64,000 nt of DNA from NCBI GenBank assembly GCA_963739305.1, contig CAVTZU010000028.1, forward strand, positions 62,443-126,442, read 5' to 3'. Under the pieces are notes generated by a model. It did not search any database. It saw nothing but the letters and a program-made list of their open reading frames with translations, and had not been told where the DNA came from. This DNA comes from Candidatus Bathyarchaeota archaeon. GTDB lineage: Archaea > Thermoproteota > Bathyarchaeia > Bathyarchaeales > Bathycorpusculaceae. Shown here one piece after another: positions 14,281 through 49,657 of the stretch. A program made the position numbers and the translations under genes. Each line of letters begins with the position of its first letter. Position 1 is the first letter of the stretch.

Positions 14281-14693
14281 GGCGCCGGGTGCCTCTTTCT
14301 CAACACCAATGCCCCGTACGCCGCTGCAACGATGATTATTAACCCGACGAGTACGAGGAAGAACGCCCAGAGGAACCGCCATTCGAAAGTGCGGTACATC
14401 CCGAGCCACCAAACCAGTCCCAAGAAGACCAGAATTAAGCCTCCAACCAGAGGCCCCAAGAATCCGTACTCGCCCTTCTCGTGTTTCTCTCCCTTTTCTT
14501 GCTTCTCGTGCTTCTCGTGTTTCTCACTTTTCTCCTCGTCCTTCTCGCGCCTTCGATATTCTCTTCGCGTAGCTGGAGCCGGAGGAGGAGTGGCAGCCTG
14601 CTGCATCTTCAGAGGAGCTCCACACTTAGAGCAGAAACTCATTTCTTCAGTAATTGGGGAACCACATTTTGGACAGTAGGACATACTCTGCAC
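14277..14693 (-). CDS. Zinc-ribbon membrane protein with EKHEK repeats
   Basis: YCPKCG...FCSKCG, charged repeat, two C-terminal TM helices. Confidence 0.78.
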   Translation of the reverse strand: MQSMSYCPKCGSPITEEMSFCSKCGAPLKMQQAATPPPAPATRREYRRREKDEEKSEKHEKHEKQEKGEKHEKGEYGFLGPLVGGLILVFLGLVWWLGMYRTFEWRFLWAFFLVLVGLIIIVAAAYGALVLRKRHPAP

Positions 14694-14733
14694 CTGTTTG
14701 TTACTTTTATTCGGAACAATTAGTATTTAAAAC

Positions 14734-15306
14734 ATGCTAAACTCGGCAAGTGTTATATACGCTCACAGAGCTAGAATATTTCGAAAGGAGGCAGGCCATT
14801 TGAGTTCGCAAGGATTCTCACACCAACATCGCGAAGGAATTCTCAGTGCGATTTCTGCCGGTGTCTTCTTTGTTTTGATCGGATCACTGTTCATAATTCA
14901 CCCAAATCTATATGATAACCTGGTCTCTTTCTTCTCAGACTTCAAAGTAGCCGCTGCTTTTGGTACCAATAACATCACGTTACCTATACCGATCGACGTT
15001 GCATCACACGTCAGTGTGTACACTGCTGCGGAGCAATTCAGCCTGGCATGGGGAGTTTTCCTCGTGGCAGCAATTGTTGTAAGGTTTGCAGTGAACACGC
15101 CGACCAGGAGGAAGGCACAGAACATTTCGGACATAATCTTCTGGTTTGGAACAGCCTATCTCATTCAAACCTGGTTGATTGGTCAGGCTAAATGGTTCGA
15201 ATTCTGGGCACTTACAATCATTCTCCTCGGAATCTCGCTCGTGGCAAGAGCAATATACCTTGCTTTAGTTTCAGCAACTCGCCACCAAAATGTGAAAACC
15301 CAATAG
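14734..15306 (+). CDS. Multi-pass membrane hypothetical protein
   Basis: About four TM helices; likely start TTG ~14800 after AAGGAGG. Confidence 0.7.
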   Translation: MLNSASVIYAHRARIFRKEAGHLSSQGFSHQHREGILSAISAGVFFVLIGSLFIIHPNLYDNLVSFFSDFKVAAAFGTNNITLPIPIDVASHVSVYTAAEQFSLAWGVFLVAAIVVRFAVNTPTRRKAQNISDIIFWFGTAYLIQTWLIGQAKWFEFWALTIILLGISLVARAIYLALVSATRHQNVKTQ

Positions 15307-15330
15307 ACCAGCAGACTTCGGGGTGACAGA

Positions 15331-15744
15331 TTGCCCATTTCTTACTCAGAAGCCCCAGATGTCAAAAAACTCGCAGATGAAATCGCCGAAAGCCTCGAAT
15401 TCTTCCACGTCGTTCCGCAGTATGTGTTTTGTCTCAGAAGCAAAGGCTCGAGTTCCAGACGAACCATCGCCCGCATTCACGGACTCGGCAAGGTGTGGCA
15501 GGAGACACTTAACATACCGCCGTCCTACGTAATTGAGGTCATTTCTGAACGGTACGACAGACTTACCCAGGACGAAAAAGAGAAAACGGTCATCCATGAA
15601 CTCCTACATGTTCCTGCAGCCTTCGCTGGAGGTTTTCGTCCCCACAAAGGATACATCAACGATGAAATCGTCGACAAACTTCACGGGACATTTCGCAAAC
15701 GGAGACAATCTGGAGGACAAGTTTTTAAGGAACATATGGAATGA
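15331..15744 (+). CDS. Putative metallopeptidase (phage-metallopeptidase-like)
   Basis: RS.GS..R.IARIHG, YVIEVISERY, VIHELLH, GGFRPH. Confidence 0.78.
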   Translation: MPISYSEAPDVKKLADEIAESLEFFHVVPQYVFCLRSKGSSSRRTIARIHGLGKVWQETLNIPPSYVIEVISERYDRLTQDEKEKTVIHELLHVPAAFAGGFRPHKGYINDEIVDKLHGTFRKRRQSGGQVFKEHME

Positions 15745-15794
15745 AAGAGGAAAACTGAAAATCATCGTCATCAGTTCACAATGAGAGAACCATC

Positions 15795-17402
15795 ATGAAA
15801 TATTCCATGAAAAGCCTTGCCCACAACGGAATCTATGTTCCTCAGTTCGATTACAGGGGATTTAGTGTCAGGATACAAGGTCAGCCTATTAAGTTGTCGA
15901 GAAAGACAGAACAAATGACTGTGTTCTGGATAAGAAAAAGACAATCCCTAACTTCTCCTCCTGACAAAAAGTTCTACGAGAACTTCATCAAAGACTTCTT
16001 GCATGCCTTGAAATCAGAAAACCCCAATATCAGCTCTCTGCAGAGTTTTGAAAACGGCTACCTAGACAGCCTCGACGAGAACGAGTGGATGCATGACGAA
16101 CACGCGCGAATCGACTTCTCAGAAATCGCAACATACGTCCAGCAAGAGCAAGAGAAGAGAACAAACATGCCCAAAGAGGAAAAGAAAAAACTCGCAGCTG
16201 AAAGAAAACTTGCTCGAGATGCACTAAGGGAAAGGTATGGATACGCAGTCGTTGACGGAAACAAACTTGAGATAGCAAACTGGACCGCCGAGCCATCCTG
16301 CATTTTCGCTGGGCGGGGAGACCATCCTAAGAGAGGGAAATGGAAAGAAGGACCCGCGGAGCAAGACATAATTCTGGACCTATCTTCTGACAGTCCGATG
16401 CCCCCTGGCAACTGGAAAGGCAGAATCTGGGAACCTGAGAAGATGTACATTGCAAAATGGGAGGACAAGCTGACAGGAAAAATAAAGTACGTTTGGTTCT
16501 CCGACTCCGCCTTTCTGAAACAAAAAGCAGAAGAAGAGAAGTTCAAAAAGGCTGGAAAGCTCAGCAAGGAAATACCAAAGGTCAAAGCTCACATCTTGAA
16601 AAACCTTAGCGCCGAAGACCTAGACACACGAAAGACAGCAACGGTCAGCTGGCTCATCCTAGAAGTAAACATGAGAGTCGGCGACGAAAAAGATCCAGGC
16701 GAGGCCGACACGGTAGGCGCAATCACCTTGAGGCCCGAACACATAAAGATTGAAGGAAACAAACTGAATTTTGATTTCTTAGGAAAAGACTGCGTAAGAT
16801 GGACAAAATCGATCGAGGCCCCGCCCGTGGTCATAAAGAACATGCAAGAATTTTCCAAAATGAGCAAAGAATACCTTTTCGAAGGAATAAACTCAAGGAG
16901 GGTGTCACGATTCCTTTCAAAACAGATGGAAGGATTAACAGCAAAGGTGTTCAGAACATGGAAATGCACAACGACTGTCAAGGAACATCTTGAAACGTGC
17001 AGCGTCACGAAAAACGATCCTGAGTACTCCAAGCAATACTGTGCAAAAATGGCTAATCTGAAAGCGGCGATAATAGCTAATCACAAGCGCAAGATCCCGC
17101 TGAACTACGAAGATAGACTTGCCAAAAAGCACGCACATGCCAAAGAACTCGAGATGAAGCTGAAAGAACGAAAAGAACAAGGCAAGAGCACCGAGACTCT
17201 CATGAAGAGACTGGAAAAGAGCAAGATTGATGCAAAACTTGCAGAAGAAACGAAAGAATACAACCTTGGCACCTCTCTCAAATCTTACATCGACCCCATG
17301 ACATATGTAAGATGGGCGAAAGATGTGGATTTTTCACTCGACAAGCTTTATCCTAAAACCCTTCGAAAGAAGTTCAGCTGGGCCTTAGGACCGGAAAGCT
17401 GA
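15795..17402 (+). CDS. DNA topoisomerase IB (eukaryote-like)
   Basis: LAHNG, GRGDHPKRGKWK, MRVGDEK, DFLGKD, AKVFRT, ANHKR, GTSLKSYIDP: full R-K-R-H-Y pentad. Confidence 0.94.
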   Translation: MKYSMKSLAHNGIYVPQFDYRGFSVRIQGQPIKLSRKTEQMTVFWIRKRQSLTSPPDKKFYENFIKDFLHALKSENPNISSLQSFENGYLDSLDENEWMHDEHARIDFSEIATYVQQEQEKRTNMPKEEKKKLAAERKLARDALRERYGYAVVDGNKLEIANWTAEPSCIFAGRGDHPKRGKWKEGPAEQDIILDLSSDSPMPPGNWKGRIWEPEKMYIAKWEDKLTGKIKYVWFSDSAFLKQKAEEEKFKKAGKLSKEIPKVKAHILKNLSAEDLDTRKTATVSWLILEVNMRVGDEKDPGEADTVGAITLRPEHIKIEGNKLNFDFLGKDCVRWTKSIEAPPVVIKNMQEFSKMSKEYLFEGINSRRVSRFLSKQMEGLTAKVFRTWKCTTTVKEHLETCSVTKNDPEYSKQYCAKMANLKAAIIANHKRKIPLNYEDRLAKKHAHAKELEMKLKERKEQGKSTETLMKRLEKSKIDAKLAEETKEYNLGTSLKSYIDPMTYVRWAKDVDFSLDKLYPKTLRKKFSWALGPES

Positions 17403-17524
17403 ACATGCGGGATATCTTCATTGGTTTGAAAAAAAACGAGTTTTAGTTTTCATCGACATGAACAGATATTGATTCCAAGGAACGGCTCAGCTCACAACCA
17501 TATAATCCAAAAGGCATATCTACG

Positions 17525-17615
17525 AAAAAAGATATAGTTGAGGGAGAATGGTAGAAAGTTTTTCCTGCGGGGAAAGGAGAAAGTTGAAAAATCTGGTTTC
17601 TACCATTCTCCACAC
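17525..17615 (-). ncRNA. Candidate structured small RNA (15-bp perfect stem)
   Basis: GGAGAATGGTAGAAA 17543-17557 / TTTCTACCATTCTCC 17597-17611; TATA-like TTAAGA ~25 nt upstream on the minus strand and oligo-T downstream. Confidence 0.4.
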
Positions 17616-17787
17616 AAGAAGAGTCAATAACATTCTGCTCTTAACCTTGTCGTTAGTTTTCGATTTTGTCAACATCCCAGACTATCTTGAGGGAAAAACA
17701 AGGATGCATTTTTGAGGGCCGCAAAGACGTCTTGCTGCCCTCCTGTTCAGCTCGCATGCACAGGTTTCCGACATTTTCTTCTCGTCG

Positions 17788-18213
17788 TTATTCTGCGTAC
17801 TTTCTGGCCTGCATGAAAAGGGTGACACATACAAGAAGAAGCAGGAGTGATGATATTGCCAGACCAGCGATGTTCCATGAATCGTGGATCGAGAACCAGA
17901 ATGAAACGAAGAAACTGCCGATCATCCCGATTAGTGCACCAAGGATCGTTCCAAAGTACAGAGATGCCACCGAATGTCTTTCCTGTAGGTTCTGTGCCGT
18001 CTTGATCGTTTCTACGCTGTCCAAAAGCGTCTTCAGAGTCTCAGTTGGGACAGTCACGTCAAGTTGCCGATGGTCCTCTGCTCGCAGCAAGTACGAATGC
18101 AGATCAAGAGTTGCTTGCCAAAAGTCCTGCAGAACATCTCTCATATTTTCATGATGCATATCCGCTGCCGTGGGTCTTGGATCGGCATCCGCATCGTCTT
18201 GATTTTGGTTCAA
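17788..18213 (-). CDS. Hypothetical membrane protein
   Basis: 141-aa ORF with two C-terminal TM helices. Confidence 0.6.
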   Translation of the reverse strand: MNQNQDDADADPRPTAADMHHENMRDVLQDFWQATLDLHSYLLRAEDHRQLDVTVPTETLKTLLDSVETIKTAQNLQERHSVASLYFGTILGALIGMIGSFFVSFWFSIHDSWNIAGLAISSLLLLLVCVTLFMQARKYAE

Positions 18214-18391
18214 CCAGCTCTACCTCTGTTCGTCTGCATCTCCACATTGATAGTCTTCTCACGATTATGAACCTTGTCTTCAGCCAAGAATCAAGAACTC
18301 GCATTCAGCCGTGAAGGTTTGGTTGGAACAAGGCTTTTATTCTAAGGCAGTTCTTACGTGAATTAATTCACGTGGAAATAAGGGATGACGA

Positions 18392-18658
18392 ATGAGAGGA
18401 GCACTTGTTTTCCTCGCAGTCTTCATCATAGTTCTGCTGGCGACCATAGCTTATCCAGATCTGCCGCTAGGCAAACAGATCTACAACGCCCTCAACCTTC
18501 CAACCCCTGATTACTTAGTTCTAGGTATTCAAGTAACAACGCTAATAGAAGCAGTCTTCAACGGAGTAATCTATGGCATAGTAGTTTGGATCATCTACAC
18601 GATTGCTGACCGAGCGACCAGAAAGAAACCTCAACCACAACAAAGCCAAAAATCATAA
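18392..18658 (+). CDS. Small two-TM membrane protein
   Basis: 88 aa, two hydrophobic helices, T-rich terminator-like tract downstream. Confidence 0.7.
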   Translation: MRGALVFLAVFIIVLLATIAYPDLPLGKQIYNALNLPTPDYLVLGIQVTTLIEAVFNGVIYGIVVWIIYTIADRATRKKPQPQQSQKS

Positions 18659-18757
18659 CAAGCCAGCTAAGAAAAGAACCCTCAACACCACATTCTTTTT
18701 CTTTGACAAAGCAACATAGGCAGATTCTTCAATGCATGTTTATCTTAGAAAGTTGAG

Positions 18758-18832
18758 TGGACGGGCCGGGATTTGAACCCGGGACCTCCACGATGCCAAC
18801 GTGGCGATCATACCAGGCTGATCTACCCGCCC
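18758..18832 (-). tRNA. tRNA-Ala(GGC)
   Basis: GGGCGGG acceptor with G3:U70, anticodon arm CCACG-TTGGCAT-CGTGG, T-loop GGTTCAAATCC, discriminator A. Confidence 0.96.
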
Positions 18833-19267
18833 GCTACATAGCGGTTCTCAAACCCACAAACAGCACATTAAGCTTTGACTTCTTGTCGCTGTCTGGCTCA
18901 GCTTCGGTTTACCATAGACTTTGACTAGGTCAATGAACACAGTTATTCTTAAACCATTCGAGAGTAAAAGGGGTCTAAAGACGAATCCGCACTTCGTTTT
19001 CCTAGTTTTGTTCATCCAACTCGTTTGATCAGAAACGTTTTTAACATTAAGAACAGAATAACTTTGTCTCATCCGAATCAGCTTCGCGGCACTTCTATTT
19101 ATCTTCACGTCCGCTTCATAGTCCTGTTCTTATTTCCAAGTCTCCCCTGCATTTGGCACACTTCATCCTTCAGGCATGGTGATTGCAATAATCGCCGTTA
19201 TTTGGATACGATGGGTTCTAAGTAAAACAATGACACATTCTCAATCAACAAGTAGTCGTACGAACGA

Positions 19268-20689
19268 CTATCCGCAGTGCAAGTATTGCCCGAGAATCTT
19301 TTCGATCTCCTCTGGCTTGCTGAACAAATCATTCCACAAATTTCGGTCGTCATAGCAAGTCAATTTCTGAATTGTTCTATCGATAATTCTTGACGGGAAG
19401 ACATCGTCAGCCTCGTAGTATTCTCGATCTCTCTGTAGGTTCTCAGCAGCTTCAATGCAGGAATGAGGCAACGGTCCAAACGAATCGTGTTCATTTTTCG
19501 TCGGTTGTGAGTGAAAGGCTTCCGACTCCCTCAAGGACTTCGCCGCGTTGTCAAGCCCATAGTTTGCAGCCAAAGCCAACCCTGCTAGAATTAGATGCGT
19601 ATTGGCGAAGGCATCTGGGGCTCTGTACTCAAACGTCTCTCGGCAGCTACTACTCATCTCTGCTTTCGTTCTGTGCTTCCACCACAAAGGTATCCGAACC
19701 AACGCTAGACGATTCCTGTCGCTCCAACAGATGTGCATCGGCGACTCTTTGCCCGCAATGAACCGCAGGTATGAAACAGGCGTTGGGTTACCGAAAGCGA
19801 CAAGGCTAGGCGTGAACTTCAGTATTCCAGCAATCATGCATAGTGCTTCTTTGCTCAGACTCCCGTTTGATTTCGAAACGATATTTCGTCCTCTTTTCAA
19901 GGCGCATAAATGAACGTGCATTCCGTTGCCTGCGTGATCCAAATTGATTTTCGGAGAAAATGAAGCAAAAACTCCGTGCCTCGCGCAGACGTTTCGAACA
20001 ACCCACTTTGCAATGACTGCCGTGTCGGCCATGTCCCCGAGGCTTTGAGCGGTTAACTCGATTTCATGTTGTTCCGCTGTTGTCTCGTCCTTGTTGATTA
20101 TCTTCCCAACTTCGCCGTGTCCATACTTTGTCCGGATGCCCATAACGCTCAGCGTAGCCAATACTTCGTTTCGAATCTCTTCGAAACTTGCGAACGGAGA
20201 AGACTCGTGATAATTCGCATCCGGGGATCCTGGAAAAAGGATTTCAGTTCGTTGTTTTTCAATGATGTAGAACTCAAGCTCAATCAATGCCTTCATGGTG
20301 GTGTTGTTTGAGGATTGCAGTTTTTTCTCAGCTCTTGTCAACACGCTTTGTGGAGCAATATTCAATGGTTTCCCGTTTTCATCTCTGTAGTCGCATAGTA
20401 CGTTTAGTGTCGGCAAAATTGTGAAGGGATTTGTGAAGAACCTATCAGTTCGCGGAGTTATGTAGATGTCGCTTTTTTCAGGTTCGATGAATGAGAACAG
20501 GCTTGAACCATCTGCGCGTTCGCCAAACTCAAGAATCTCTTTGACTCGTTCTTTGTCGGTTGTGGAGAAGCTGAGGGTTTTCAGTCTACCGTCTTCAGGT
20601 ATGTGACACAAGTTTAGTATTTTCAAGTTGTTTTTGGAGATGGCTTTGAATGCAGCCTCTTTCTCTGAGAAATTCACCATGTTGTGCAT
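19268..20689 (-). CDS. glnA: Glutamine synthetase family protein
   Basis: DGSS, ELEFY, HGEVG, EQHEIE, GNGMHVH, NRLALVRIP, FEYRAPD; start probably ATG 20689 or 20680 rather than 20821. Confidence 0.88.
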   Translation of the reverse strand: MHNMVNFSEKEAAFKAISKNNLKILNLCHIPEDGRLKTLSFSTTDKERVKEILEFGERADGSSLFSFIEPEKSDIYITPRTDRFFTNPFTILPTLNVLCDYRDENGKPLNIAPQSVLTRAEKKLQSSNNTTMKALIELEFYIIEKQRTEILFPGSPDANYHESSPFASFEEIRNEVLATLSVMGIRTKYGHGEVGKIINKDETTAEQHEIELTAQSLGDMADTAVIAKWVVRNVCARHGVFASFSPKINLDHAGNGMHVHLCALKRGRNIVSKSNGSLSKEALCMIAGILKFTPSLVAFGNPTPVSYLRFIAGKESPMHICWSDRNRLALVRIPLWWKHRTKAEMSSSCRETFEYRAPDAFANTHLILAGLALAANYGLDNAAKSLRESEAFHSQPTKNEHDSFGPLPHSCIEAAENLQRDREYYEADDVFPSRIIDRTIQKLTCYDDRNLWNDLFSKPEEIEKILGQYLHCG

Positions 20690-30356: not shown

Positions 30357-30857
30357 TTTTCATCCCTCGCTGATCTGAGCGGTGAAAACCCAGCAAATCT
30401 GATTCATCTGTCAGCCACCGCCTACCTTGTGTACTGGGATGGATCTGGGATGGTTCTGTCACTAGCACTCCCGATTAGGAGGGCTATCTCTGCCATAGCC
30501 ATTTGCGGAAAATCTTTGAGAACGTCAAGTCTGCCTGAGAAACCTGTGGCTACCACTATGTCTTCGTAGAATATAACATAGTACTGAAGCACGGGCGTTA
30601 TTTTCATGATTCTTAGGATGGCTCCATCTTTGTCGGCAGTTGGCGAAAGTCAACATTGCGGCCTTTCGTATCATCCTGTCCCTGTGGGTCATCAAGTAAT
30701 TTCTTTGGGCTATATCGAGATCGAAACTGATTTTTGCGCTAAATTCAACCAATACGTTTGTCATTTTTCGTTCCCAAATCCTGATGATGTTATCGAGTAA
30801 ACATAACGATGTCCCACACAAACGGTGGATGTGAATAACCTTTGGTGTCGCGATGTA

Positions 30858-30949
30858 ACAGAAATCTTGAAAGCAACGTGAAAGGTCACAGCATGAAACG
30901 AAATGTTGAGAGACACGACGAAATGTTGCAGAATTGAACAAAATGTCAA
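30858..30949. repeat. Five phased direct repeats (core RAAATGTYR, ~20-bp period)
   Basis: GAAATCTTG 30861, GAAAGGTCA 30880, GAAATGTTG 30900, GAAATGTTG 30920, AAAATGTCA 30940. Confidence 0.65.
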
Positions 30950-30998
30950 TCAATGCGACTTTATGCAGCCTTAATCCTATTCAGGGCGTTGGCGGATA

Positions 30999-31451
30999 TT
31001 GATGCGTGCAGGGATCAAAATGAAACGAAGTTGCTCTAGAACCTTGCTGATGCACTTGAATGTTGTCACTCTGCCCCGACTCAAAGGAAACTTAGAATCC
31101 GTCTTTGCTGATGATGAACAAGACGCCAAGCATCTCGTTTCAGATGCTAAAGGGTTCAGCAATGTGATTATTCTTAGGAAGGTCGAGTCCATTGATGGTG
31201 TATTCGTAAGACTGCCCAACGGGCAAAATATCGGCTCGTTAGGGGTGATGTTGGATTATCTGGAAAAATCACATGTTGATGTCGGCGCGTATAGTAATGG
31301 CAGAGAATGTCCTTTTTATCGATTCGTCTACACTGATTTTTACGGTCCTAAGCAGGTGCGCAAGAAGATTTATGAGGTCGTGGCTCCCTCAATAGCTTCA
31401 CTCGAGCCATGTTACTCGTTCCTCAAGAAGTACTTTGGTGGTAAAGATTGA
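30999..31451 (+). CDS. Hypothetical protein coupled to the kinase-fold gene
   Basis: 150-aa ORF whose stop overlaps the TTG start of the next gene. Confidence 0.6.
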   Translation: MMRAGIKMKRSCSRTLLMHLNVVTLPRLKGNLESVFADDEQDAKHLVSDAKGFSNVIILRKVESIDGVFVRLPNGQNIGSLGVMLDYLEKSHVDVGAYSNGRECPFYRFVYTDFYGPKQVRKKIYEVVAPSIASLEPCYSFLKKYFGGKD

Positions 31452-33253
31452 CCGAGGAAAAAGCTGAAGCACTTCCGATAGACTATTTTGCGTCCATTGG
31501 AATTGGAAATCGAATTCTTAAGTTGTTGCGCGATATTCCCTTTGAAGAAGCTCGTTTGGGCGGATATACTGAAACTAAGTTGAAGAAACTTCTTTCAAAT
31601 TACAGACGACAGCTGATTGCGAGGAATTTGGTAAGATCAACAAAACCTGCACAAGAAGAACAGAAGTCTGAAGCTTCTGGGAAAGAGTCGAAGAGTCACG
31701 GCAAGAGGTCGCTCTATGAAGAACTTGAAGCACTGGAAGAATCATGTCAAATAGAAATTCGTAGGGAAGAAGGAGAACCTCCTCGTTACAGCTTGAGTAA
31801 CAATGCGCTATTCTACATTCATAGTCTATTTCCAACCGCACTGAATTTCCATACGGTGGCGGAGAGATGCATAAAAGCCCCATCGTTCAAATGGAGCCCA
31901 CGTCCAATAGGAGAGTCTGAACTCCTTCTGGATGAGATAATCTTGGTCCCAGGTTCTCTGATACTTGCAGGGGAACATAGTGTATTGCTGGGTCAGCCTG
32001 CCATAGTCTTACCAATACCTCTCCATGTAATGGTTCACGCGACGGTTTACCAGTGCAAAAAGACCACGGAGGTTATTAAGCTCCCCCCAACATTCCCATC
32101 TCCGAACTCTTTGATCGGAGAAATAAGTACGTTTCCAGGAACGCCAGAACGCAGTCGTACTCAAGATTATAAATTCAACGAGCAAGTGAAGTCGGTTGTG
32201 GATCTATTTCAGAAGAAATTAATAGCCTTTAACGAGAGCTCAAATTATTATGTCGTGCTGGACATCCGGAGTCAAATCCCCCCTTCTGTCGGTCTCGGTA
32301 GCAGCGGAGCATTATGTGCTGCCTTGGCAATCTTGCTTGATCGCATAAAATATTTCGGGGACAAAAGTCCAATCGATAACCTAAATCAGAAAGATCTGGG
32401 CAATCTGTTCGACGACAAGAAGTCTAGACTTATGGAGATATTTCTCAACGCATCGGAATTCGAAGCAGTTGTCCATGGAGAAAGCTCCGGAGTTGGACCG
32501 TTCGCCAGCTTGGTCGGAGACGACTGTTTCACGCCTTTATGGTATGATTTAGGTGTCAGACCGGATGATAAAGTTGCCAAAGGAAAAAGTCGACTGAGTC
32601 AACACTTGAATCGAAGGAACAAAGGAGCGAAGTGCACATTAGACCTGAAATGTAAGAGAGGATCTGAAGAGGCCAGGAGATATCTGAGCAGATATTTGGG
32701 ATTAGCCGCTGTCTATACGACTCAAAGTCGTCCAGAGCTAAAGTCAAAACAAGCCGAATCTTCGTACTGGCATTCTTTAGGAAGACCTGACTGTCGCCGC
32801 GATTTCTTTGCGATTACACAGAAGTTGTGGGACAACTTATGCCATGTAAACAAAGAAAGCGAAGCTGATGATGACATACAAGATGTAATCACTTGCGTCA
32901 ATCTTTTCGGAGGGTATGAAGAGGGATATCTGAAGATGTTGCGCCAAGAAAGCGAAGCGACGCCTCGAGAACTAGTATACCACATGCGCGGATTCGGTCT
33001 AGGGGCAAAGTACGTAGGCGTAGGTTTTGGGGGAGATATTGTTGTGATTGGCCGAAAGGAGAAGTTAGGAATGATGCTATTTCCAAGTTACTTCCCCGTG
33101 CACTTTAGCAGTGTAAATCTCACTGACGACGAGAAAGTAACTCCTTCGATAGACGTGAAAGCACGGCCATTGATAATTCAAAAAGACAAATTCGTGGAAG
33201 AACTCATGCCCCAATTCATGAAACGCGCCCAACGGGCTTATTTGAGCTACTAG
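31448..33253 (+). CDS. wHTH domain fused to mevalonate-kinase-like GHMP fold (catalytic residues altered)
   Basis: PGSLILAGEHSV, SQIPPSVGLGSSGA, E..VHGESSGVG, GAKYVGVGFGG; ~130-aa N-terminal wHTH-like region. Confidence 0.75.
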   Translation: MTEEKAEALPIDYFASIGIGNRILKLLRDIPFEEARLGGYTETKLKKLLSNYRRQLIARNLVRSTKPAQEEQKSEASGKESKSHGKRSLYEELEALEESCQIEIRREEGEPPRYSLSNNALFYIHSLFPTALNFHTVAERCIKAPSFKWSPRPIGESELLLDEIILVPGSLILAGEHSVLLGQPAIVLPIPLHVMVHATVYQCKKTTEVIKLPPTFPSPNSLIGEISTFPGTPERSRTQDYKFNEQVKSVVDLFQKKLIAFNESSNYYVVLDIRSQIPPSVGLGSSGALCAALAILLDRIKYFGDKSPIDNLNQKDLGNLFDDKKSRLMEIFLNASEFEAVVHGESSGVGPFASLVGDDCFTPLWYDLGVRPDDKVAKGKSRLSQHLNRRNKGAKCTLDLKCKRGSEEARRYLSRYLGLAAVYTTQSRPELKSKQAESSYWHSLGRPDCRRDFFAITQKLWDNLCHVNKESEADDDIQDVITCVNLFGGYEEGYLKMLRQESEATPRELVYHMRGFGLGAKYVGVGFGGDIVVIGRKEKLGMMLFPSYFPVHFSSVNLTDDEKVTPSIDVKARPLIIQKDKFVEELMPQFMKRAQRAYLSY

Positions 33254-33266
33254 AAGAATAAAGACC

Positions 33267-34236
33267 TTGTCAAAAGTCACGGTAGTGTCTCATCCAATTC
33301 AAGGTTTGGTCAAATATCACGGTCTCAAAGACCCTTTGAAAAGAATACCTTTTCATGATTCTATATCAGTCTGCGTGGAAGGTCTTGCAACAAGAACCAC
33401 GGTCGAAATAATGGAAAATAATGCTCCCGATTACATTTGGATTAATGGTTTCAGCCTTAAGGGTTCAGCAAGAAGACGCGTTGAACTTGTTCTAAACATA
33501 CTGAGAAGGAAAAGCCCGAACCAAATGCGGGATAAAGATTGTGTCGCAAAACAATATTACTGATGGGAAAGGATTGGGTTTCTCTTCCTCGGGCTTCTCC
33601 GCACTAGGTCTTGCGACAGCCAAAGTATTAGGTCTGAAGCTTGATTCAATCTCGCTGCAGGAGACAGTTAGGCTTGGATCTGGATCTGCGACCAGAAGCT
33701 TGGCGGGTGGCTTTGCTATATGGTATGCGAATAACAATGGGAGATCTTACGCCCAAATGCTAGCCCCTCCTGACGCTGTCCATCTTGGAATCGTCGTTGT
33801 TCCAATCCCAGACAGAATAATCACAGATTCGATCCACCAAGAAATAGAGACCTCGCCTTTCTTTCATTCTCGACTGAAGGTATTGCCTGATTTGATGGAA
33901 TCAATGAAAAAAGCAATATTCAATGATGATGTGGGTGAAATTGGGAGATTGGCAGAACAAGATAGTCTATCTCTTCATGCAGTGACAATGACCACCAGAA
34001 GTGGATGGATACTGATGAAGCCTGAAACAATCCGGGTCATAAATCAGGTGAAAAAATTGAGAAAAAGGGGACTGAATGCTTGGTTTTCGTTGGATACAGG
34101 TCCGTCTGTATTCATCAATACAGTTCCTCAAGAGGCAAAGGAAATCTCGACGCAAATAGAGAGCGAACTAAGACTACGAACGATTGTAAGTGGCATTGGA
34201 GGACCCCCTCAAATATCAACAGACCATCTGTTCTGA
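33267..34236 (+). CDS. mvaD: Phosphomevalonate/diphosphomevalonate decarboxylase, split by one frameshift near 33510
   Basis: HPIQGLVKYHG...RIPFHDSISV, KGLGFSSSGF, RLGSGSATRS..GGF, FSLDTGPSV; removing one A from the A4 run at 33510-33513 joins both ORFs. Confidence 0.85.
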
Positions 34237-34676: not shown

Positions 34677-35414
34677 TCAAACGTAGAGTACGCCAATGCC
34701 AAAACCTTCTTGGTTACTGCTATTGACTATCTCCTTGTGAAAATACCCAGGTTTTATTTCATTCCAAAACTTGTTCACTGCACCTGCCAGTTCTGGGGGA
34801 CCCCTGCAAATATCGTGGAAAGCAATTAAACCGCCTTTGCGTACTAGTGGACTGTACATTTGGAAATCTTTCTTGACGCCTTCGTAAGTGTGATCACCAT
34901 CTATGAAAAGAAAGTCAACTTGTTGATCTTTCAGGATTGATCTCACGGTTGACAAACTGGACGGTGAATGTGAGTCAGCTCGGACCAAGAATATTCGTTG
35001 ATTTCTTTGAGCGAAGTTTGTGAAGAAGGGTATTTTGATATCTTCATATCCTCCTCCAAATTTGCCTTGCGGCAAGTCTAGACTAATTATTCTAGCGTTT
35101 GGGTCTATCATTCGAGTGAAGAGAAACAGTGTTCCTCCTTGAGCTGTTCCGATTTCAAGTATGGTACATATGTTCTGTTCGCTTAGTATAGACAGCAAAG
35201 TCTCGATTTCTTGCTTAATCTGAAAAGGTTCGATTGACCAGCCTATCAAGTTTAGGGGTTTGTGATGAAAAATGTCAAATGTTAGATCCACATAATCCGC
35301 GGGTGTTTTGCATTTTCTTGCTTTCTTACTCAAAACTGAAGAGGCTATTCTCACTCTGATTCCACAAATGTCAAACTTGCCAAGATTAATTTCACGATTA
35401 AATGGAAGTTTCAT
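34677..35414 (-). CDS. Class I SAM-dependent methyltransferase (Methyltransf_24-like)
   Basis: LEIGTAQGGT, FLFIDGDHTYEGVKKD, GGLIAFHD; start set at ATG 35414 because the longer ORF overlaps the next gene. Confidence 0.85.
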   Translation of the reverse strand: MKLPFNREINLGKFDICGIRVRIASSVLSKKARKCKTPADYVDLTFDIFHHKPLNLIGWSIEPFQIKQEIETLLSILSEQNICTILEIGTAQGGTLFLFTRMIDPNARIISLDLPQGKFGGGYEDIKIPFFTNFAQRNQRIFLVRADSHSPSSLSTVRSILKDQQVDFLFIDGDHTYEGVKKDFQMYSPLVRKGGLIAFHDICRGPPELAGAVNKFWNEIKPGYFHKEIVNSSNQEGFGIGVLYV

Positions 35415-35472
35415 TCCGAAAACAAAAGTGGACGAGTTTCCTTTTAAGGGTTTTTTCTTATGGTTTTGCCAA

Positions 35473-35486
35473 TTAGCGCGCGCTAA
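35473..35486. promoter_or_regulatory. Perfect 14-bp palindrome TTAGCGCGCGCTAA
   Basis: Lies between the divergent methyltransferase and ligase genes; half-site copies recur nearby. Confidence 0.45.
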
Positions 35487-35674
35487 GAAGAAAAGGTTCC
35501 TCAAGTTGTCTTGATAGTAGGATCTCACATTCACGCATACCAATAATGTTAAGAGATGCATGTCTTCGAAAAGTAGAATGAATGATGGATAAGGTGATCT
35601 AATTACCGAACATTTTTTCCGAAAGCTACGAAAGCATCTATTCGCGTGCTCGTATTTTACATAATCTGCGAATA

Positions 35675-36940
35675 TTGCAAAGAAACACATGGTTGTCTTC
35701 TTCTGAATTGGAAAGGATGCAAACGAAAAAACTCCGGAGTATTTTGGAATATGCATATGAAAACGTTGCTTTTTATCATCAGAGGTTTAATATGGCGAAA
35801 GTTAAGCCGAGTGACATAAAATCCTTAGAAGATCTGCCCAAGATTCCAATTCTTACAAAATCAGAGGTCCGAAATAATTCTAACTCTCTTATTTCAAAGG
35901 GAGTTATAAAAGAACTATGCAAGAAGGAAGAGACTTCGGGCACAACTGGCATCTCCTTATCCATTATCGCTGAGAAAAGAGTGTCCTATATCATGGCAGC
36001 AAACAAGTTAAGACACTACGTAGAAAATGGGGGAAAATTATTTAGAGACAGATATGTCGTCCTTCTCCCATCATTCAGGCCCCTCAGAGGGACCTATCTG
36101 GGTGTTCTTCTTAGAAAGTTAGGAATCCTAAGAAGGGTTGATTTGAATACCCGGTATCCGATAGAAGGCATAATTGACAGGTTAGTTGACTTTAAGCCAG
36201 AAGTAATTGACAGCTATCCGAGTTTCCTTCTCCTATTAGCGAGGGAACTAGAAAAAAAAGGAAATGCGATTCAACCAAGACTTGTTTTTGTTAGTGGAGA
36301 GCTCCTCGATGCTAGGAGTCGAAAGCTGATCAATTCTTCGTTCGAAACTGAGATGTTTGACACATACGGCTGTACAGAAGCGGGATTCATCGCTTGGGAA
36401 TGCTCTGAACATGCTGGTTACCATACCAATGTGGACCTAGTGGTTGCTGAGTTTGTAAAGGATGGCGAACAAGTTGCAGCGGGAGAGTCTGGTGAGATCA
36501 TTCTCACGCCACTCTGGAACTTTGCTATGCCGTTGATAAGGTATAAAGTCGGTGACATTGGCACACCAAGCGGTGAAAGTTGCCCATGTGGAAGAGGACT
36601 ACCTTTAATGAAGGTATTAGAAGGGAGATTTGAGGATCTCATAATATTGCCAACTGGTAGAATAATTTCTCCTCTCGTCATTTCATGTTATTTTGAAGGC
36701 ATTGAGGGAATAACTGAGTACAGAGTAATTCAAGAAAAAACAGATGACTTCATTGTACAAATTGCATTAAAGGAAGGTTACGGAGATGACACGCTTCTTC
36801 AAATCAGAGACAGATTCATGAAAGGGTTAGGGGAAGACATAACGATCAACTTCGAGGTTGTTGACACCATACCAAGAGATGGTAAACTCCGGCGCATAGT
36901 CTCTAAGTGCCTCCCCCGAGAACGCTTTTTCTCCATTTAG
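35675..36940 (+). CDS. Phenylacetate-CoA ligase (PaaK/CapK)-like adenylating enzyme
   Basis: AYENVAFY, TSGTTG, YPSFL, SGELL, DTYGCTE, PLIRYKVGD, EGR. Confidence 0.88.
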   Translation: MQRNTWLSSSELERMQTKKLRSILEYAYENVAFYHQRFNMAKVKPSDIKSLEDLPKIPILTKSEVRNNSNSLISKGVIKELCKKEETSGTTGISLSIIAEKRVSYIMAANKLRHYVENGGKLFRDRYVVLLPSFRPLRGTYLGVLLRKLGILRRVDLNTRYPIEGIIDRLVDFKPEVIDSYPSFLLLLARELEKKGNAIQPRLVFVSGELLDARSRKLINSSFETEMFDTYGCTEAGFIAWECSEHAGYHTNVDLVVAEFVKDGEQVAAGESGEIILTPLWNFAMPLIRYKVGDIGTPSGESCPCGRGLPLMKVLEGRFEDLIILPTGRIISPLVISCYFEGIEGITEYRVIQEKTDDFIVQIALKEGYGDDTLLQIRDRFMKGLGEDITINFEVVDTIPRDGKLRRIVSKCLPRERFFSI

Positions 36941-37059
36941 CTCGTGGTCAATGTATGCTAAACAGCTAAGAGTGAATAATGGACGCGCAATTTTGAGAAA
37001 CATAGCATGAGTCTTCATTGTTCCTTTTCTGTTCTATAAGAGAGTTCCAGAAGGAATAT

Positions 37060-37239
37060 ATGAACAAACTAGTTGTAATAACAGTCATGAAAACTGACCT
37101 TGCTATTAGAATACGACATGGTTGGACAAAAGACGAAAATGAGCACGCAGCGAAACCTAAGGTAACCACCTGCGGCGGCGGAGGATGCGGATGCGGAACT
37201 GGATGCTCATTTTCGCAAGTGACTGAAAAAACACGCTAG
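37060..37239 (+). CDS. Putative RiPP (TOMM/LAP) precursor peptide
   Basis: 59 aa from ATG 37060 or 50 aa from ATG 37087; charged leader then TTCGGGGCGCGTGCSFS; 16 bp from the SagB stop. Confidence 0.8.
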   Translation: MNKLVVITVMKTDLAIRIRHGWTKDENEHAAKPKVTTCGGGGCGCGTGCSFSQVTEKTR

Positions 37240-37255
37240 TAGAATGTCCTGATCG

Positions 37256-38038
37256 TCACCTTCCAATTGCAGCCATGTACAAAGTCGATTCAACATTACC
37301 ATCGAGACCTAACAAATCGTTGAGTTGGTTATCGGAGAAGCCGCCGATTGAACAACACTCTAAGCCCAACGCAGTTGAGATCAAGTAGATATTTTGCATA
37401 AGATGGCCTGCCTCGAACAGAACATACCGATACCCTCGTTCTCCATATTTTGTCTCTGTCCTCTCAAATACCGCGCTAATTACACAGATAAAAGCAGCGT
37501 TACGCGTCCAATCCTGATTGTTTAAACAAGTACTGAACTCCTTTGCGTTGCTATTCGCCTTAGTTTGTTCGAGCGATTGCGATTTAACATTGAAATGATA
37601 TACGCCGTTCTTCAACTTTTTCACGTGAAATGATATAACGTAAACTTCCAATGGATAACGTGCTCCTGCTGAGGGATAAGCACGAAGCTCTGATAGATCC
37701 GTTCCTTCAACAGTGTGTGTAATTCCTGCTGAGCACAGTAAGACGGTAGCAACGTCTCTCAGCGTGACTGCTTTCCCAACAAAATCCCTTTGTGATCTGC
37801 GGCGGTCAAGAACCTCGTAAAATGGTAGTGAACATTGTATTACATCGCGCGCGCGTGACAAGCCAATTTGCTTAAACCTTGGATACGATTTGTAGCTAAT
37901 TTCTTTCCACTCGAGAGGCCATTCAACAATATCTATTTCGGCACTTGGAATGAAAAGCTTCGTATTTTCATGAAAGATTTTGGAAAGCGAAATTTTTTTA
38001 TTGTTCGCACTAAACTCATTAGAAAACATAGTTATCAC
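37256..38038 (-). CDS. SagB/ThcOx-family FMN-dependent azoline dehydrogenase
   Basis: FHENTK, RRRSQRDF, RAYPSAGARYPLEVY, KYGERGYRY, EAGHLMQN. Confidence 0.93.
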   Translation of the reverse strand: MITMFSNEFSANNKKISLSKIFHENTKLFIPSAEIDIVEWPLEWKEISYKSYPRFKQIGLSRARDVIQCSLPFYEVLDRRRSQRDFVGKAVTLRDVATVLLCSAGITHTVEGTDLSELRAYPSAGARYPLEVYVISFHVKKLKNGVYHFNVKSQSLEQTKANSNAKEFSTCLNNQDWTRNAAFICVISAVFERTETKYGERGYRYVLFEAGHLMQNIYLISTALGLECCSIGGFSDNQLNDLLGLDGNVESTLYMAAIGR

Positions 38039-39373
38039 AGAAATGGATGGGGGATGGGATTTAACCTTTCTTGTGCATCAGCCTTTTTGTGCCCCAAAGT
38101 TTCAGGCACATTTCTTAAACGGCTGCCACCCCAATACCTGAATCTTTCATCCAGGTACAGTGGTTGAAGTTCCGGCATTACAACCTTCACCACCCTCAAC
38201 CCTAGTTCCTCAACGTCAAGAGTCGTAACGTCAACATAATAACATGCTTGATTGCGTTCTCGTAGGATTTTCAGGCATGTTTTAAGTTTGTCGCTCTTTC
38301 CCTTTTTTTTATTACGAAGATTACCACTCAGTGGTTTTTTCTTTGCGCCCAAGAGAAATGATAATTTGGGAATCATCGATACATCGGACCATAATAGTCC
38401 TCTCTGTTCAAGATTGCTGATGTTTTCCCACTTGGGGTCCGTTGTAGGGGGCTTTACAGTTTTGTCTTGTTTTAGTGTACGCAGCCAATGCCTTGATTGT
38501 TGAGATTCCTCCATGCATCCTAAAATTGCTTCTTCTGCGTTAAGACTTGCTTTTGCTCCAACTGAAATTGCCGGTCCGACCCCAGTTCTGTCTATCAGCA
38601 GACATAAGAAGACAGGTATAGGAATGTCTGTAGTTATATCGTATACGTAAACTTCCAAATTTGCATCCCTGAATCGTGTTAGAAGCGTTCCAATAAGATT
38701 ATCATTTAAAGAAGAAAGGTCAACAAGCGGGGAAGATAATTTATTAAGATAGGTGATGATGAATGCGTCCCTTTCGACAACTTCGCAGATCCCACGGTAC
38801 AAGGCATCGGAGATGTCCAACCCTGCTGCTGCACCTGTTGTTATTGGCAATCTGATTATGGGCTCATTGTGACCGTATATGTAGGGCACGTGAACCAATT
38901 GTGCGGGTAGAAGTCTTTCTGAATCATCGAAAACAGAATGGCTAGAAACCCAATTGAATTGTGAATGTCCATCGAAAAGGAATCTAGCATACTTTTCTTG
39001 TCGCCTTTGATTCTCTGAAGGACCGACTACCGTGAATGGATCTATAGCACGCTCTGATCCAAGTTCATTATATGAGGCTTTTGTGAGATTCTCTTCGAAA
39101 TATATAGAGAGGCAGTATCTTTCGATAGCTTCTCCTATTGCCTTAACCTTCCCTCTTTCTTCGTTAATCGATGTGCCACCCACAGTTTCTTCTTTTATTC
39201 CTCCTGTACTAAAGACAGTGGTATTGCAGATTTCGGATGCATAGTTAAAAAGTCTGGGCTCATCATCATAAGTTGGTGCCCTGTACAACTTGCGGATAAT
39301 GCCGATTCTTGGATTTATTATGTGCCAAACAAGGTTTAGAAAGCTTTTTTCCTTGTCGTCTTCCTGTGCTCAA
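38035..39373 (-). CDS. YcaO cyclodehydratase (D protein); N-terminus apparently frameshifted near 39345
   Basis: KAIGEAIERY, TTGAAAG, GICEVVERDA, C-terminal PIPHPFL; in-frame IINPRIGII upstream of 39288 implies the TTG 39373 start. Confidence 0.93.
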
Positions 39374-39375
39374 TG

Positions 39376-40453
39376 TCAAGAGTCAGCTTCCTTTCTTTTT
39401 CCGCAAGTAGGGCAGTTAGGAACCTTTAGCAGACGATCCACACTTAAACTGTACGTTTTGAAATTTACGTGGAGAACTCCCGACAATGTGGCTGGGTCAC
39501 TATACTTTCCTAAGTACTTGAGAGCCTCTAAAGTCGTTAAGCCTGCTATGATGTCCGCAAAGGGGCTTATTAGTCCAAGTTGCTTCTCGTCTGACATGAG
39601 CTGTTCTTGATATGCAGTATAAAGCTCGATGTCGTCTATGTTTGATTTGATCCTGAGGATAATAGCAATCGAAACATGGAGACATGTAAGGAATGACGGT
39701 AGGACCCACTTCACCATGGTCCTCGTAAACTGCGGTATTTAACCACGGTTTACCTTGAGTAACGCACATGCGATTCAGCGACGATCGGTACAGTAAGGAT
39801 CGATTTTCAGAACAACAAACTACAAGATCGACAAGATTTAGGCAATCTAAGAATTGCTTATCTGACAAGTCAGCTTTAACCCAATGGAGTTCAGTTTTGT
39901 CTGAAACTATTGAACGCAGTGCTTCGCCGCGTTGGGTACCAGCATCACGATTTGTGTATGGACCTAACTCGATGTCTGCTGGTCCAACTTCTTTTGAGTC
40001 AGATGCGAACAGCTTTCCTACGCCATTAAGTGCCAGAGAAGAAGCGACCCTAGAGCCAACAGCGCCAAGTCCTACCAAAAATACGGAGGAATTCTTGAGT
40101 CTTTTTGTAGGCTCATACATCTTAGAGTAATTACCAATCGAGGCAAAGTAGAGTGTTTTCAAAGTATTAGCATTAATGTCATTTTGAGAAAGTTTAAAGT
40201 GGTTCACGTTGTCATCATCAAATACTATTGAATTATCGCTTAAGAATCGAATAATGGATTTAACACGCTCTTTGGGATACTTGGTTAACCTAAGAATCTC
40301 CTCAAAATCATGTTTACCATCAAGAAAAGGCAACAGTTTTTCGAGTAAACCTACCGATTTACCATGGACTTCAACTATCTTATCCCCGCATATGAAATAA
40401 AGGCTACCGTGTTTTCTGACAACTGTAAAATACAAAGGGATTTTTGGCTTCAA
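39376..40453 (-). CDS. RRE plus ThiF/E1-like leader-binding C protein, split by one frameshift near 39661
   Basis: N-terminal LLPFLDGKH..EEI (wHTH RRE-like), VGLGAVGS, GPTVIP..SPCFDC, C-terminal PNCPTCG; deleting one T gives continuous CFDCYILRIKSN. Confidence 0.87.
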
Positions 40454-48038: not shown

Positions 48039-49330
48039 TTAGGTTGATGCGCGCTTTCGAGTTTTGAATTGCGCCACTTTTTCAGCTGCTCCCAAGACAG
48101 GGCTTACCATTTTTGAGACGAAGCCCATTCCTGCGAACATGATTCTGAGGCTGTTTATGTCTGCTGAATAGACTGCGCCGATGAGAGGAGCGGTGACCAC
48201 GTATACAGTGAGGAAAACGGCAAGGCCGACTATAAGTCTTATCCAGTTCGTTGGCAGAAGAGTGGCTGGTAAGTATGCGATGATAGCTGCTGTTGTGGAG
48301 GCTGCGAGGATTTTGGCTGAGGATTGGAAGTCGGCTTTCGCTTGGTAATGCTTCCATATCCAGTATAGTGCCCAAATCATGCTGGGAATTCCGGATAGGA
48401 TTCCTGCTATAATGAGGCCTGTTATTCCATACATGGAAATGAGCGCAATACCTAGTGGAAGGCCTATTATGAAGGTGATTATACTTTGATACATGGGTAT
48501 TCTCGTTTTTCCTAGGCCAGTCAGGAGACCACCTGCGCTGATGCTTCCGATGGCGACAAAGAGGTTTCCGGTGACCATTATGGTTAGGAAGAGCGGTCCG
48601 TAAACGTATTTTTCTCCGTAGAGTGCGCCGATGATCGGTCCTGACACAGCCATTAGAATCATGGTTGCTGGCACAAGTAATATGGAGGCGTATTTTGTTG
48701 AGGATGCGAACACGGCTTTTAAGAGGTCATGTTCGTTCTCTGGGTTGAGTTTTGAGAATGCTGGGAACAGGACTGTTCCTATGGGGATGCTGAGGAAGGT
48801 TAGAAGGACCGCGAAGTTTGAGGCTGTTAGGTAGTTGCCGTACATCGAGTTGGTGGTCAAGGGGACTATCATGAAGGCGTATACTTGGGTGAGGACGCCG
48901 CCTAGGCTAGATGAAATCGAGAGAGGCACTCCGTAGCTTAGCATGGTTCTGAGAGTTCGGGTTATGTTGGTTCCTTTTGTTACCTTCTTTCTTAAAGGCC
49001 TGAGGAGGATAATGTAGAATGTTGTTAGCCCGATGATCGCTGCGGCAACGACGGACAATGCGTTTCCAAGGACTGCTCCGAGGACGCTGTAGCCTAGAAA
49101 GACGAGTACGGGGCCTATAGCTGTTTTTGTGATAGCTTGACAGATGAGCGTGAAGCTGTTGAGTTTCATTCTTTCAAAGCCTATGAATACGGCTTGAGAT
49201 GCTGCGAGGATTGCGCCTGCAACGATTGAGACCGACATCATAGCTATGTAGGATGCAGATTCTGGTCTTTGGAAGATTGTTGAAGCGATAAACGTTGCGA
49301 GGAAGAGGGCCAGGAATGCTGGCCTGGATG
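48039..49330 (-). CDS. Wzx-like oligosaccharide flippase, 5' end cut off at the junction
   Basis: Multi-TM MOP-fold pattern, YGNYLTA..F, VLFPAFS, LYGEKY; the ORF-track N-terminus comes from the foreign sequence. Confidence 0.82.
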
Positions 49331-49345
49331 CACGTGCAGACGCGG
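49310..49345. other. Junction between archaeal and high-GC bacterial sequence
   Basis: Abrupt composition and codon change that truncates a gene on each side. Confidence 0.88.
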
Positions 49346-49657
49346 CGCGCTTTCGTGCTCGTCGAGGCGCGGAGAGCGCCGCGAACATCTCGAGGATGCC
49401 CGCCGCATGCCCGGCCGCATCCTTCTCCGACATCTTGCGGACCGAGGCTTCCGGTGCCGACATGCCGCCGGCCGCGTGCACTTCATGCATCGCTGCCTTG
49501 AGCATCGAAAAAAACGTTCGCGAATGGACTCCGGCAGGTCCGGCTCGCGCAGCGGCGCGAGGTGCCTGCGGTACGCGTCGAGCAGGCGCGGCTTGACGTG
49601 GCCCGTTCCAACGAGCAGCTGCATTGCCGCGTGAAATTCGTCCGGATCTGCCGCCAT
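49331..49657 (-). CDS. Bacterial hypothetical protein, frameshifted and truncated
   Basis: MAADPDEFHAAMQLLVG...VRKMSEKDAAGHA across frames; GAGAGG RBS. Confidence 0.55.

Follow-up and report, generated by a model that had tools for sequence, protein, structure and literature searches.

The window analysed here is a stretch of 64,000 nucleotides from a Candidatus Bathyarchaeota archaeon (contig CAVTZU010000028.1). An intact open reading frame (ORF) on its forward strand, 31448-33253, encodes a 601-amino acid protein in which an N-terminal winged helix is joined to a GHMP-fold domain resembling mevalonate kinase, as judged from motifs, Pfam and NCBIfam scores, AlphaFold2 (AF2) models and residue mapping. 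We call it the winged-helix-GHMP (WH-GHMP) protein. Its GHMP domain retains the ATP loop and the Mg ligands Glu and Ser of mevalonate kinase, and has Ser and Gly in place of the catalytic Lys and Asp. Tentatively, we interpret the protein as a one-component, ligand-gated regulator, because the ATP/Mg site is kept, the catalytic pair is gone, the gene lies in an operon with an enzyme whose predicted substrate resembles the ancestral ligand and the promoter region carries an array that is unique in the genome.

The TTG start of the gene shares 4 nt with the TGA stop of the upstream ORF and coincides with the aligned start position in the homologues. All four motifs quoted in an earlier, sequence-only reading of this DNA were found in the 601-aa ORF: motif I, PGS (aa 168-170, 31949-31957); motif II, PPSVGLGSSGA (aa 278-288, 32279-32311); HGESSGVG (aa 343-350, 32474-32497); and motif III, GAKYVGVGFGGD (aa 519-530, 33002-33037), all on the plus strand. 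The only Pfam family matched was GHMP_kinases_N (PF00288), with 31.1 bits against a cut-off of 22.3 over aa 247-309, and this score, together with the two-domain fold, places the protein in the GHMP kinase superfamily. The equivalog cut-off for mevalonate kinase (EC 2.7.1.36) was not reached with TIGR00549 (66.2 against 163.05 bits), and the score with the NF003036 mevalonate kinase model was 37.8 (cut-off 403). In the ESM Atlas the protein matched generic mevalonate-kinase-like clusters at 0.88.

An AF2 model of the whole protein, built with an 18-row alignment, had a pLDDT of 84.1 and a pTM of 0.87, with the GHMP fold extending from aa ~157 to ~560 (31916..33127, +). Foldseek comparison of the model yielded 182 PDB matches at E<=0.001, headed by mevalonate kinases, galactokinases, phosphomevalonate kinase (PMK) and mevalonate diphosphate decarboxylase (MDD). 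The best matches were the mevalonate kinases 1kvk (1.3e-10) and 2r42 (about 1e-10). The target-normalised TM-scores among the Foldseek matches listed were 0.46-0.74, and the domain is therefore considered a divergent member.

The catalytic residues were mapped by aligning the family profile to the human and rat mevalonate kinases of the PDB. In this alignment K13 of mevalonate kinase corresponds to S170 and D204 to G350, whereas E193 is kept as E339, and the motif II Ser is also kept. As described in passages of PMC6283576, the Asp is the catalytic residue thought to deprotonate the C5 hydroxyl, and the Lys is strictly conserved among mevalonate kinases, its replacement by Met in the human enzyme costing ~56-fold in kcat.

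A word-indexed search returned nine full-length relatives of 567-614 aa (P0003-P0011), one of which bears the name of a Bathyarchaeia metagenome-assembled genome (MAG). Eight of the nine are 41-66% identical to the window protein and the remaining one, P0011, is 29% identical; their alignment (A1) has 82 invariant columns. In an exhaustive search of representatives, 89 proteins scored at E<=0.001, of which 20 were at <=1e-10 and only 4 at <=1e-30. Ninety-eight proteins were then aligned to the family profile (A2) with hmmalign. In all 18 nearest relatives that could be aligned at both positions (P0003-P0011, P0013-P0016 and P0018-P0021) the Lys site is occupied by Ser or Thr and the Asp site by Gly, Asn or Ala; neither Lys nor Asp occurs at these sites. 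The fragment P0017, aligned at the Asp site only, has Gly. Lys was present in 18 of the 98 rows, all of them proteins of 235-494 aa, and the eight of these that were aligned at the Asp site all have Asp. One relative carries the name of a Nitrososphaerales MAG, and the source labels of family members vary between 'mevalonate kinase', 'hypothetical protein' and 'HxlR family regulator'. The sequence-only reading had proposed such an alignment as a check on decay. Since the Lys-to-Ser and Asp-to-Gly replacements are conserved across the family, we regard them as a fixed family feature rather than as signs of a decaying copy.

Many of the longer, more distant proteins share Ser or Ala for the Lys, an SSGxGPFxSL loop and a motif III that ends in GGD. 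Motif II, the Mg-ligand Glu and Ser, and motif III are invariant. The comparison delimits a large clade of GHMP-like proteins whose alternative active-site architecture is fixed (Ser/Ala at the Lys site, Gly-Pro-Phe at the Asp loop and a GGD end to motif III), while the domains fused to it vary. Domains of this type, devoid of the Lys and the Asp, are fused to other domains in P0024, P0026, P0032 and P0055. The fusion partners seen in distant relatives are a C-terminal nitrilase-like domain (PADLOC DRT/CARF-nitrilase models, 3.8e-13), PNP_UDP_1 (2.9e-13), a methyltransferase and an N-terminal CHAT domain.

The N-terminal ~130 residues had been suspected from the sequence to form a winged helix, and modelling bears this out. 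Over the full-length model and a model of the N-terminus alone, the core of this region had a pLDDT of 86-94, with 86-92 in the latter. It consists of helices at aa 19-28 and 32-36, a short strand, a helix at aa 42-58, a low-confidence loop, a helix at aa 89-98, strands at aa 102-105 and 113-116, which form a beta hairpin (aa 102-116), and a helix at aa 118-127. Comparison of the N-terminal model with 48,161 chains by VIA-align gave winged-helix proteins in all of the 50 best rows listed, with Z values of 8.2-9.9. The top match was RosR (6ez1, Z 9.9 over 81 aa), TubR reached 9.7, MarR, PadR and ArsR chains were listed with Z values of 9.5-8.2, and histone H5 and ORC were also present. Foldseek with the same model gave no match at E<=0.001; the best had an E value of 0.18, and the top matches were nonetheless winged helix-turn-helix (wHTH) proteins. 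Because all VIA-align rows listed are winged-helix proteins, a winged-helix fold (a1-b1-a2-a3-b2-b3) of the N-terminal ~130 aa is supported by the model; the predicted domain comprises aa ~12-128 (31481..31831, +). A variable basic loop between helices 2 and 3 (aa 59-88, 31622-31711, +) was recognised in the AF2 model and in the family alignment.

In the distant relative P0013, whose source label is HxlR-family regulator, the N-terminus matched a Csa3 HTH model at 2e-5 and also MarR_2, although at 1.6e-4 the latter did not reach the gathering score. The fusion of the two domains is old: relatives that are only 24-29% identical retain the winged helix. When shorter proteins were searched for stand-alone counterparts of the N-terminal 150 aa, 78 candidates emerged, none of them at E<=0.01.

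The WH-GHMP gene belongs to a conserved module, whose small partner genes the sequence-only reading had missed. It is preceded on the same strand by a gene for a ~143-aa protein (31020..31451, +), whose stop overlaps its start; this overlap is present in all four loci that contain the junction (the window, L024 of genome G288, L027 and L026). The ~143-aa protein shares 57-63% identity with P0102 and with the products of the equivalently placed ORFs of L027 and L024; it had no match in Pfam, NCBIfam or PADLOC and no usable match in the ESM Atlas. Upstream, on the minus strand, lies a divergent small gene (30425..30764), which is present in the window as two frames: 30425-30649 corresponds to the C-terminal half, and 30528-30980 to the N-terminal half, of the equivalent small ORFs of L027 and L024. 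In these relatives (about 110-122 aa) the gene encodes 122 aa in L027 and 109 aa in L024, and the two products are 63% identical to each other. In L027 and L024 it is followed by a gene for a ~150-aa protein (61% identical between the two), which is not found in the window. None of the small module proteins (143, ~110-122 and ~150 aa) matched a Pfam family at E<=1.

Across three loci, the 255-nt stretch that separates the divergent starts (30765-31019) shows 72% identity per column, and L027 and L024 share conserved blocks such as GATGTGAATAAC and AACAAAATGT with the window. Between 30786 and 30946 it contains seven RATGT motifs on the plus strand, spaced by 22, 20, 24, 50, 20 and 20 nt, and three 20-nt tandem units form part of the array. 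The array lies in the promoter region that the sequence-only reading had named for EMSA. Shuffled sequences contained 0.70 such motifs on average and none of 2000 shuffles reached seven. Four motifs are present in L027 (P 0.002) and three in L024 (P 0.03). Since the motif was picked only once the sequence had been inspected, these figures are descriptive and do not amount to a test. In the 2.3-Mb genome this is the only 160-bp window with at least six RATGT motifs on the same strand and the only site with four phased copies. On the strength of this pattern we consider the array a candidate operator.

A gene for a decarboxylase of the MvaD type, predicted to be a phosphomevalonate decarboxylase (PMD), starts 13 nt downstream of the WH-GHMP gene on the same strand (33267..34236, +); the sequence-only reading had proposed co-transcription with mvaD. 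Two pieces of it match Pfam MVD-like_N and MDD_C. Five loci extend 1 kb or more beyond the WH-GHMP gene, and in four of them (the window, L026, L027 and L028) an MvaD-type gene follows it directly. The WH-GHMP relative in L028 has only 28-35% identity, and on that contig its frame is interrupted, positions 2-1237 being split into ORFs 2-817 and 827-1237.

The intact L027 orthologue of the decarboxylase, 74-77% identical, was used for classification. It scored below the equivalog cut-off of NF040704 (267.6 against 475 bits) and level with that of TIGR01240 (171.4 against 171.35), and aligned end to end with the PMD of Anaerolinea, 6n0x (4.1e-47). Comparison with 6n0x and with the N20K/H194M mutant 6n0z revealed a PMD signature: His194 is kept and position 20 is Leu. 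The GSGSAxRS and LDxGP motifs and the catalytic Asp, Arg and Ser are also retained. According to passages of PMC11052028, a His/Lys pair separates PMD from diphosphomevalonate decarboxylase, and PMD occurs in Bathyarchaeia. Because of this signature (His kept, no Lys) the neighbour is predicted to take mevalonate-5-phosphate, a compound that the housekeeping kinase already supplies. The neighbour resembles the haloarchaeal and Chloroflexi MvaD (6n0x) in its best NCBIfam and PDB matches, the conserved His and the catalytic Asp, Arg and Ser, but it remains below the equivalog cut-off and occurs in genomes that also have AcnX and UbiD.

Two genes of the window's module, the MvaD-type gene and the divergent small gene, are each split between frames. 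The region was compared with Logan contigs of four runs from one study, which may include the assembly's own sample and are thus not independent. An A/G-rich run of the decarboxylase gene is one base longer in the window than in L027 and L026; at the matching place, the base at 33506 was absent in all three covering runs, which restores a single frame. In the divergent small gene, the lone covering contig (X3) has two bases inserted after 30639, which would shift the frame by two bases. Within the WH-GHMP gene all four runs have GA>AT at 32113-32114, changing I223 to Phe, and eight of the nine close relatives have Tyr or Phe there. Because read-based contigs carry indels at both frameshift sites, the module is probably intact and the window assembly carries small errors or minority variants. 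Frames of the window assembly at 30639, 32113-32114 and 33506 are not to be taken at face value.

The sequence-only reading had placed the gene in an accessory island, and its accessory status was borne out by the rest of the genome. The genome (2.3 Mb, 36 contigs) has four GHMP_N matches. A canonical mevalonate kinase of 327 aa is encoded elsewhere, with PGK, HGTPSGVD and GAKLTGAGGGGC, and the ORF adjoining it is read as a putative isopentenyl phosphate kinase. The genome also encodes two AcnX proteins and one UbiD. The WH-GHMP gene is accessory, because the genome has its own canonical mevalonate kinase gene as well as AcnX and UbiD genes. The sole MvaD-type gene of this genome is the one beside the WH-GHMP gene. 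Among 401 genomes of the class, 19 match the family profile at E<=1e-10, and only two (G000 and G288) contain the full-length gene; the other 17 matches are open frames of 211-353 aa that cover the kinase core only. Among 401 genomes of the phylum, G000 alone matches at E<=1e-18. MvaD-type genes (33-56% identity) are present in 77 of the 401 class genomes, and of those only G000 and G288 also have the WH-GHMP gene. Pattern scans of genome contigs with A1 and A7 matched 37 and 70 stretches, respectively, none of which was confirmed by tblastn.

The mechanism that we propose for the regulator starts from a duplicated mevalonate-kinase-type domain, which would have kept its nucleotide/Mg site and permanently lost the Lys/Asp pair of phosphoryl transfer. 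The GHMP domain would bind ATP and a small metabolite. The most economical candidates for the latter are mevalonate and mevalonate-5-phosphate, which is the predicted substrate of the adjacent PMD-type decarboxylase. The ligand would change the occupancy of the phased RATGT array in the module's own divergent promoter by the winged helix, perhaps with help from the basic loop. The outcome would be control of an accessory, ATP-dependent PMD route to isopentenyl phosphate beside the housekeeping archaeal pathway. DNA binding, the identity of the ligand, the absence of turnover and the regulatory target we infer only.

Several observations weigh against a regulator. The loop that interrupts the HTH turn varies between 3 and 28 aa and in charge from 0 to +10, and the structured part of the winged helix is net neutral (-5 to +5 in ten family members). 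A net charge of -3 to +2 makes the recognition helix acidic to neutral, and its Glu at position 92 is invariant in four close sequences (alignment A5). No significant Pfam HTH family was found in the window protein or its close orthologues; the best was HTH_54, which one of four N-terminal fragments matched with an E value of 0.029, and no Pfam wHTH family matched the N-terminus of the close clade even at E<=1. Winged helices can mediate contacts between proteins as well, and TubR, a Wadjet subunit and ORC are among the VIA-align matches. DNA binding could instead reside in one of the two or three other small proteins of the module, and G288 has no MvaD-type gene adjacent to the WH-GHMP gene, its copy being on another contig. 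Finally, the invariant ATP/Mg site and the clade-specific invariant residues R428, K459, D530 and H552 resemble a new active site equally well. The site and these residues would suit an active enzyme whose GHMP mechanism departs from the canonical one, with kinase or some other ATP-dependent activity in a pathway shared with the decarboxylase and the small proteins, an account that we consider somewhat unlikely. The same modest chance is given to its corollary, a winged helix that serves oligomerisation, partner binding or tethering instead of gene regulation. Besides the acidic to neutral recognition helix, the invariant motifs II and III, the Mg-ligand Glu and Ser, the clade's own invariant residues and its fixed SSGxGPFxSL loop speak for such an enzyme, as does the tight operon linkage to a decarboxylase with its catalytic Asp, Arg and Ser. 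Homoserine kinase, moreover, is a GHMP member without a catalytic base. On the other hand, both members of the mevalonate kinase catalytic pair were lost together, and what other members of the clade carry as fusions are domains of the nitrilase, PNP and CHAT types, not metabolic partners. A version of this account with PMK and MDD as the two enzymes is disfavoured because the neighbour has the PMD signature (His194, Leu for the MDD Lys) and should take the monophosphate already made by the housekeeping mevalonate kinase.

The fusions with nitrilase, PNP effector-type or CHAT domains would fit a conflict, defence or mobile-element module, in which the GHMP domain acts as a switch gated by NTP or a metabolite and the winged helix recognises nucleic acid or protein. 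The patchy distribution described above and the lower GC of the module stretch in the window (0.41-0.45 against 0.47-0.50) point the same way, and in G288 the module has CRISPR-like repeats and Csa1/Cas1/Cas2/Cas4/Cas3 genes at a distance of about 1 kb. Yet CRISPR adjacency was seen at one locus only, no PADLOC model matched the WH-GHMP protein or its partner, nor did any match the 252-aa neighbour or the piece of the decarboxylase, and of 35 stretches matched in a pattern scan of viral contigs with A7 none was confirmed as a relative. The conserved neighbour, moreover, is to all appearances a functional metabolic enzyme, and we regard a conflict system as distinctly unlikely. A winged helix that recognises a leader peptide, so that the protein modifies the product of the neighbouring YcaO/azoline cluster, is very improbable: genes for YcaO, a ThiF-like protein and a nitroreductase do lie 4-7 kb downstream in the window, together with a small ORF rich in Cys and Gly, but no YcaO gene was found at L024 (20 kb) or L027 (7 kb), the other loci with several kb of flanking sequence. 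PqqD-type elements are strand-first, unlike the helix-first N-terminal domain of the WH-GHMP protein, and no PqqD-type chain occurs among the 50 VIA-align matches listed, although one may be present further down. A decaying pseudogene copy of mevalonate kinase, suggested by the loss of the canonical catalytic residues and by two neighbouring genes that look frameshifted in the window, is hardly credible: the 601-aa frame is intact, 82 columns are invariant, the substitutions are fixed in the clade, and read-based contigs carry indels at both neighbouring frameshift sites, 33506 and after 30639. We rejected it.

The WH-GHMP protein shares with mevalonate kinase (1kvk, 2r3v, 6mde) the GHMP fold, motif II, the Mg-ligand Glu and Ser, the glycine loop of motif III and, in most members, the His of GEH. 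It differs from mevalonate kinase in the Ser and Gly that replace the catalytic pair, in a GHMP domain of about 400 aa with insertions, in a motif III that ends in GGD instead of GGGC, and in the added winged helix and C-terminal helix. A comparison with yeast Gal3p, which the sequence-only reading had invoked, is an analogy only. Gal3p is not known to have a DNA-binding domain, acts via Gal80 and keeps most of its catalytic residues, whereas the WH-GHMP protein has a directly fused winged helix and no longer has the Lys/Asp pair. The two would be alike as GHMP paralogues of a pathway kinase for which sensing of a ligand and ATP without turnover is proposed. Gal3p (3v5r) was found at rank 50 of the fold matches, and there is no specific sequence kinship beyond the superfamily.

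In ROK repressors (Mlc/NagC), BirA and PurR of B. subtilis an N-terminal wHTH is combined with a domain whose ancestor was an enzyme of the pathway under control. As described in the abstract of PMC10838023, haloarchaeal GfcR has the same design as the regulator proposed here, a winged helix with an enzyme-derived sensor domain. None of these four is known to use a GHMP domain, unlike the WH-GHMP protein. In full-text searches of the literature we found no wHTH-GHMP regulator and no GHMP-based regulator of the archaeal mevalonate pathway; the one mevalonate-responsive regulator cited in the references of a biosensor review is a designed one. If the protein senses mevalonate or mevalonate-5-phosphate, it would be a natural sensor for isoprenoid engineering and would offer an initial point of entry into the way in which certain Bathyarchaeia alternate between the PMD route and the archaeal route with its low ATP demand. 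A bolder and unlikely extension is that the protein is a natural archaeal transcription factor responding to a mevalonate-pathway metabolite, and that GHMP domains without the Lys and Asp form a widespread, unrecognised class of switches gated by ATP or metabolites. In this view the re-tooled module, joined elsewhere to nitrilase, PNP, CHAT and methyltransferase domains and here to a winged helix, would act as such a switch on each of these outputs.

The CRISPR-like repeats of L024 (G288:C2) occupy 13722-14537, with a unit starting CTTTCAATTCCCTTTATTGGGATTTTTG, and Csa1, Cas1, Cas2, Cas4 and Cas3-like genes extend over 14485-19985; repeats and Cas genes lie 1-2 kb downstream of the G288 orthologue of the WH-GHMP gene. 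In the window an azoline-type cluster for a ribosomally synthesized and post-translationally modified peptide (RiPP) was noted at 34677-40453. It comprises genes for a methyltransferase (34677-35756, -), a nitroreductase-family protein (37256-38038, -), YcaO (38035-39288, -) and a ThiF-like protein (39500-40453, -), a weak match to the AMP-binding family below the Pfam cut-off (35675-36940, +), and a 73-aa ORF with a Cys/Gly-rich end that could be a RiPP precursor (37018-37239, +). At ~49300, over some 200 nt, the GC of the window rises abruptly from about 0.46-0.50 to 0.62-0.75, and from there to its last position the window keeps a GC near 0.67. The rise lies inside the 5′ part of a 488-aa flippase-like ORF (48039-49505, -); it may mark a chimeric assembly join (the contamination estimate of the genome is 7.8%) or foreign DNA. 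A gene for a eukaryote-type topoisomerase IB with all three Pfam domains was found at 15795-17402.

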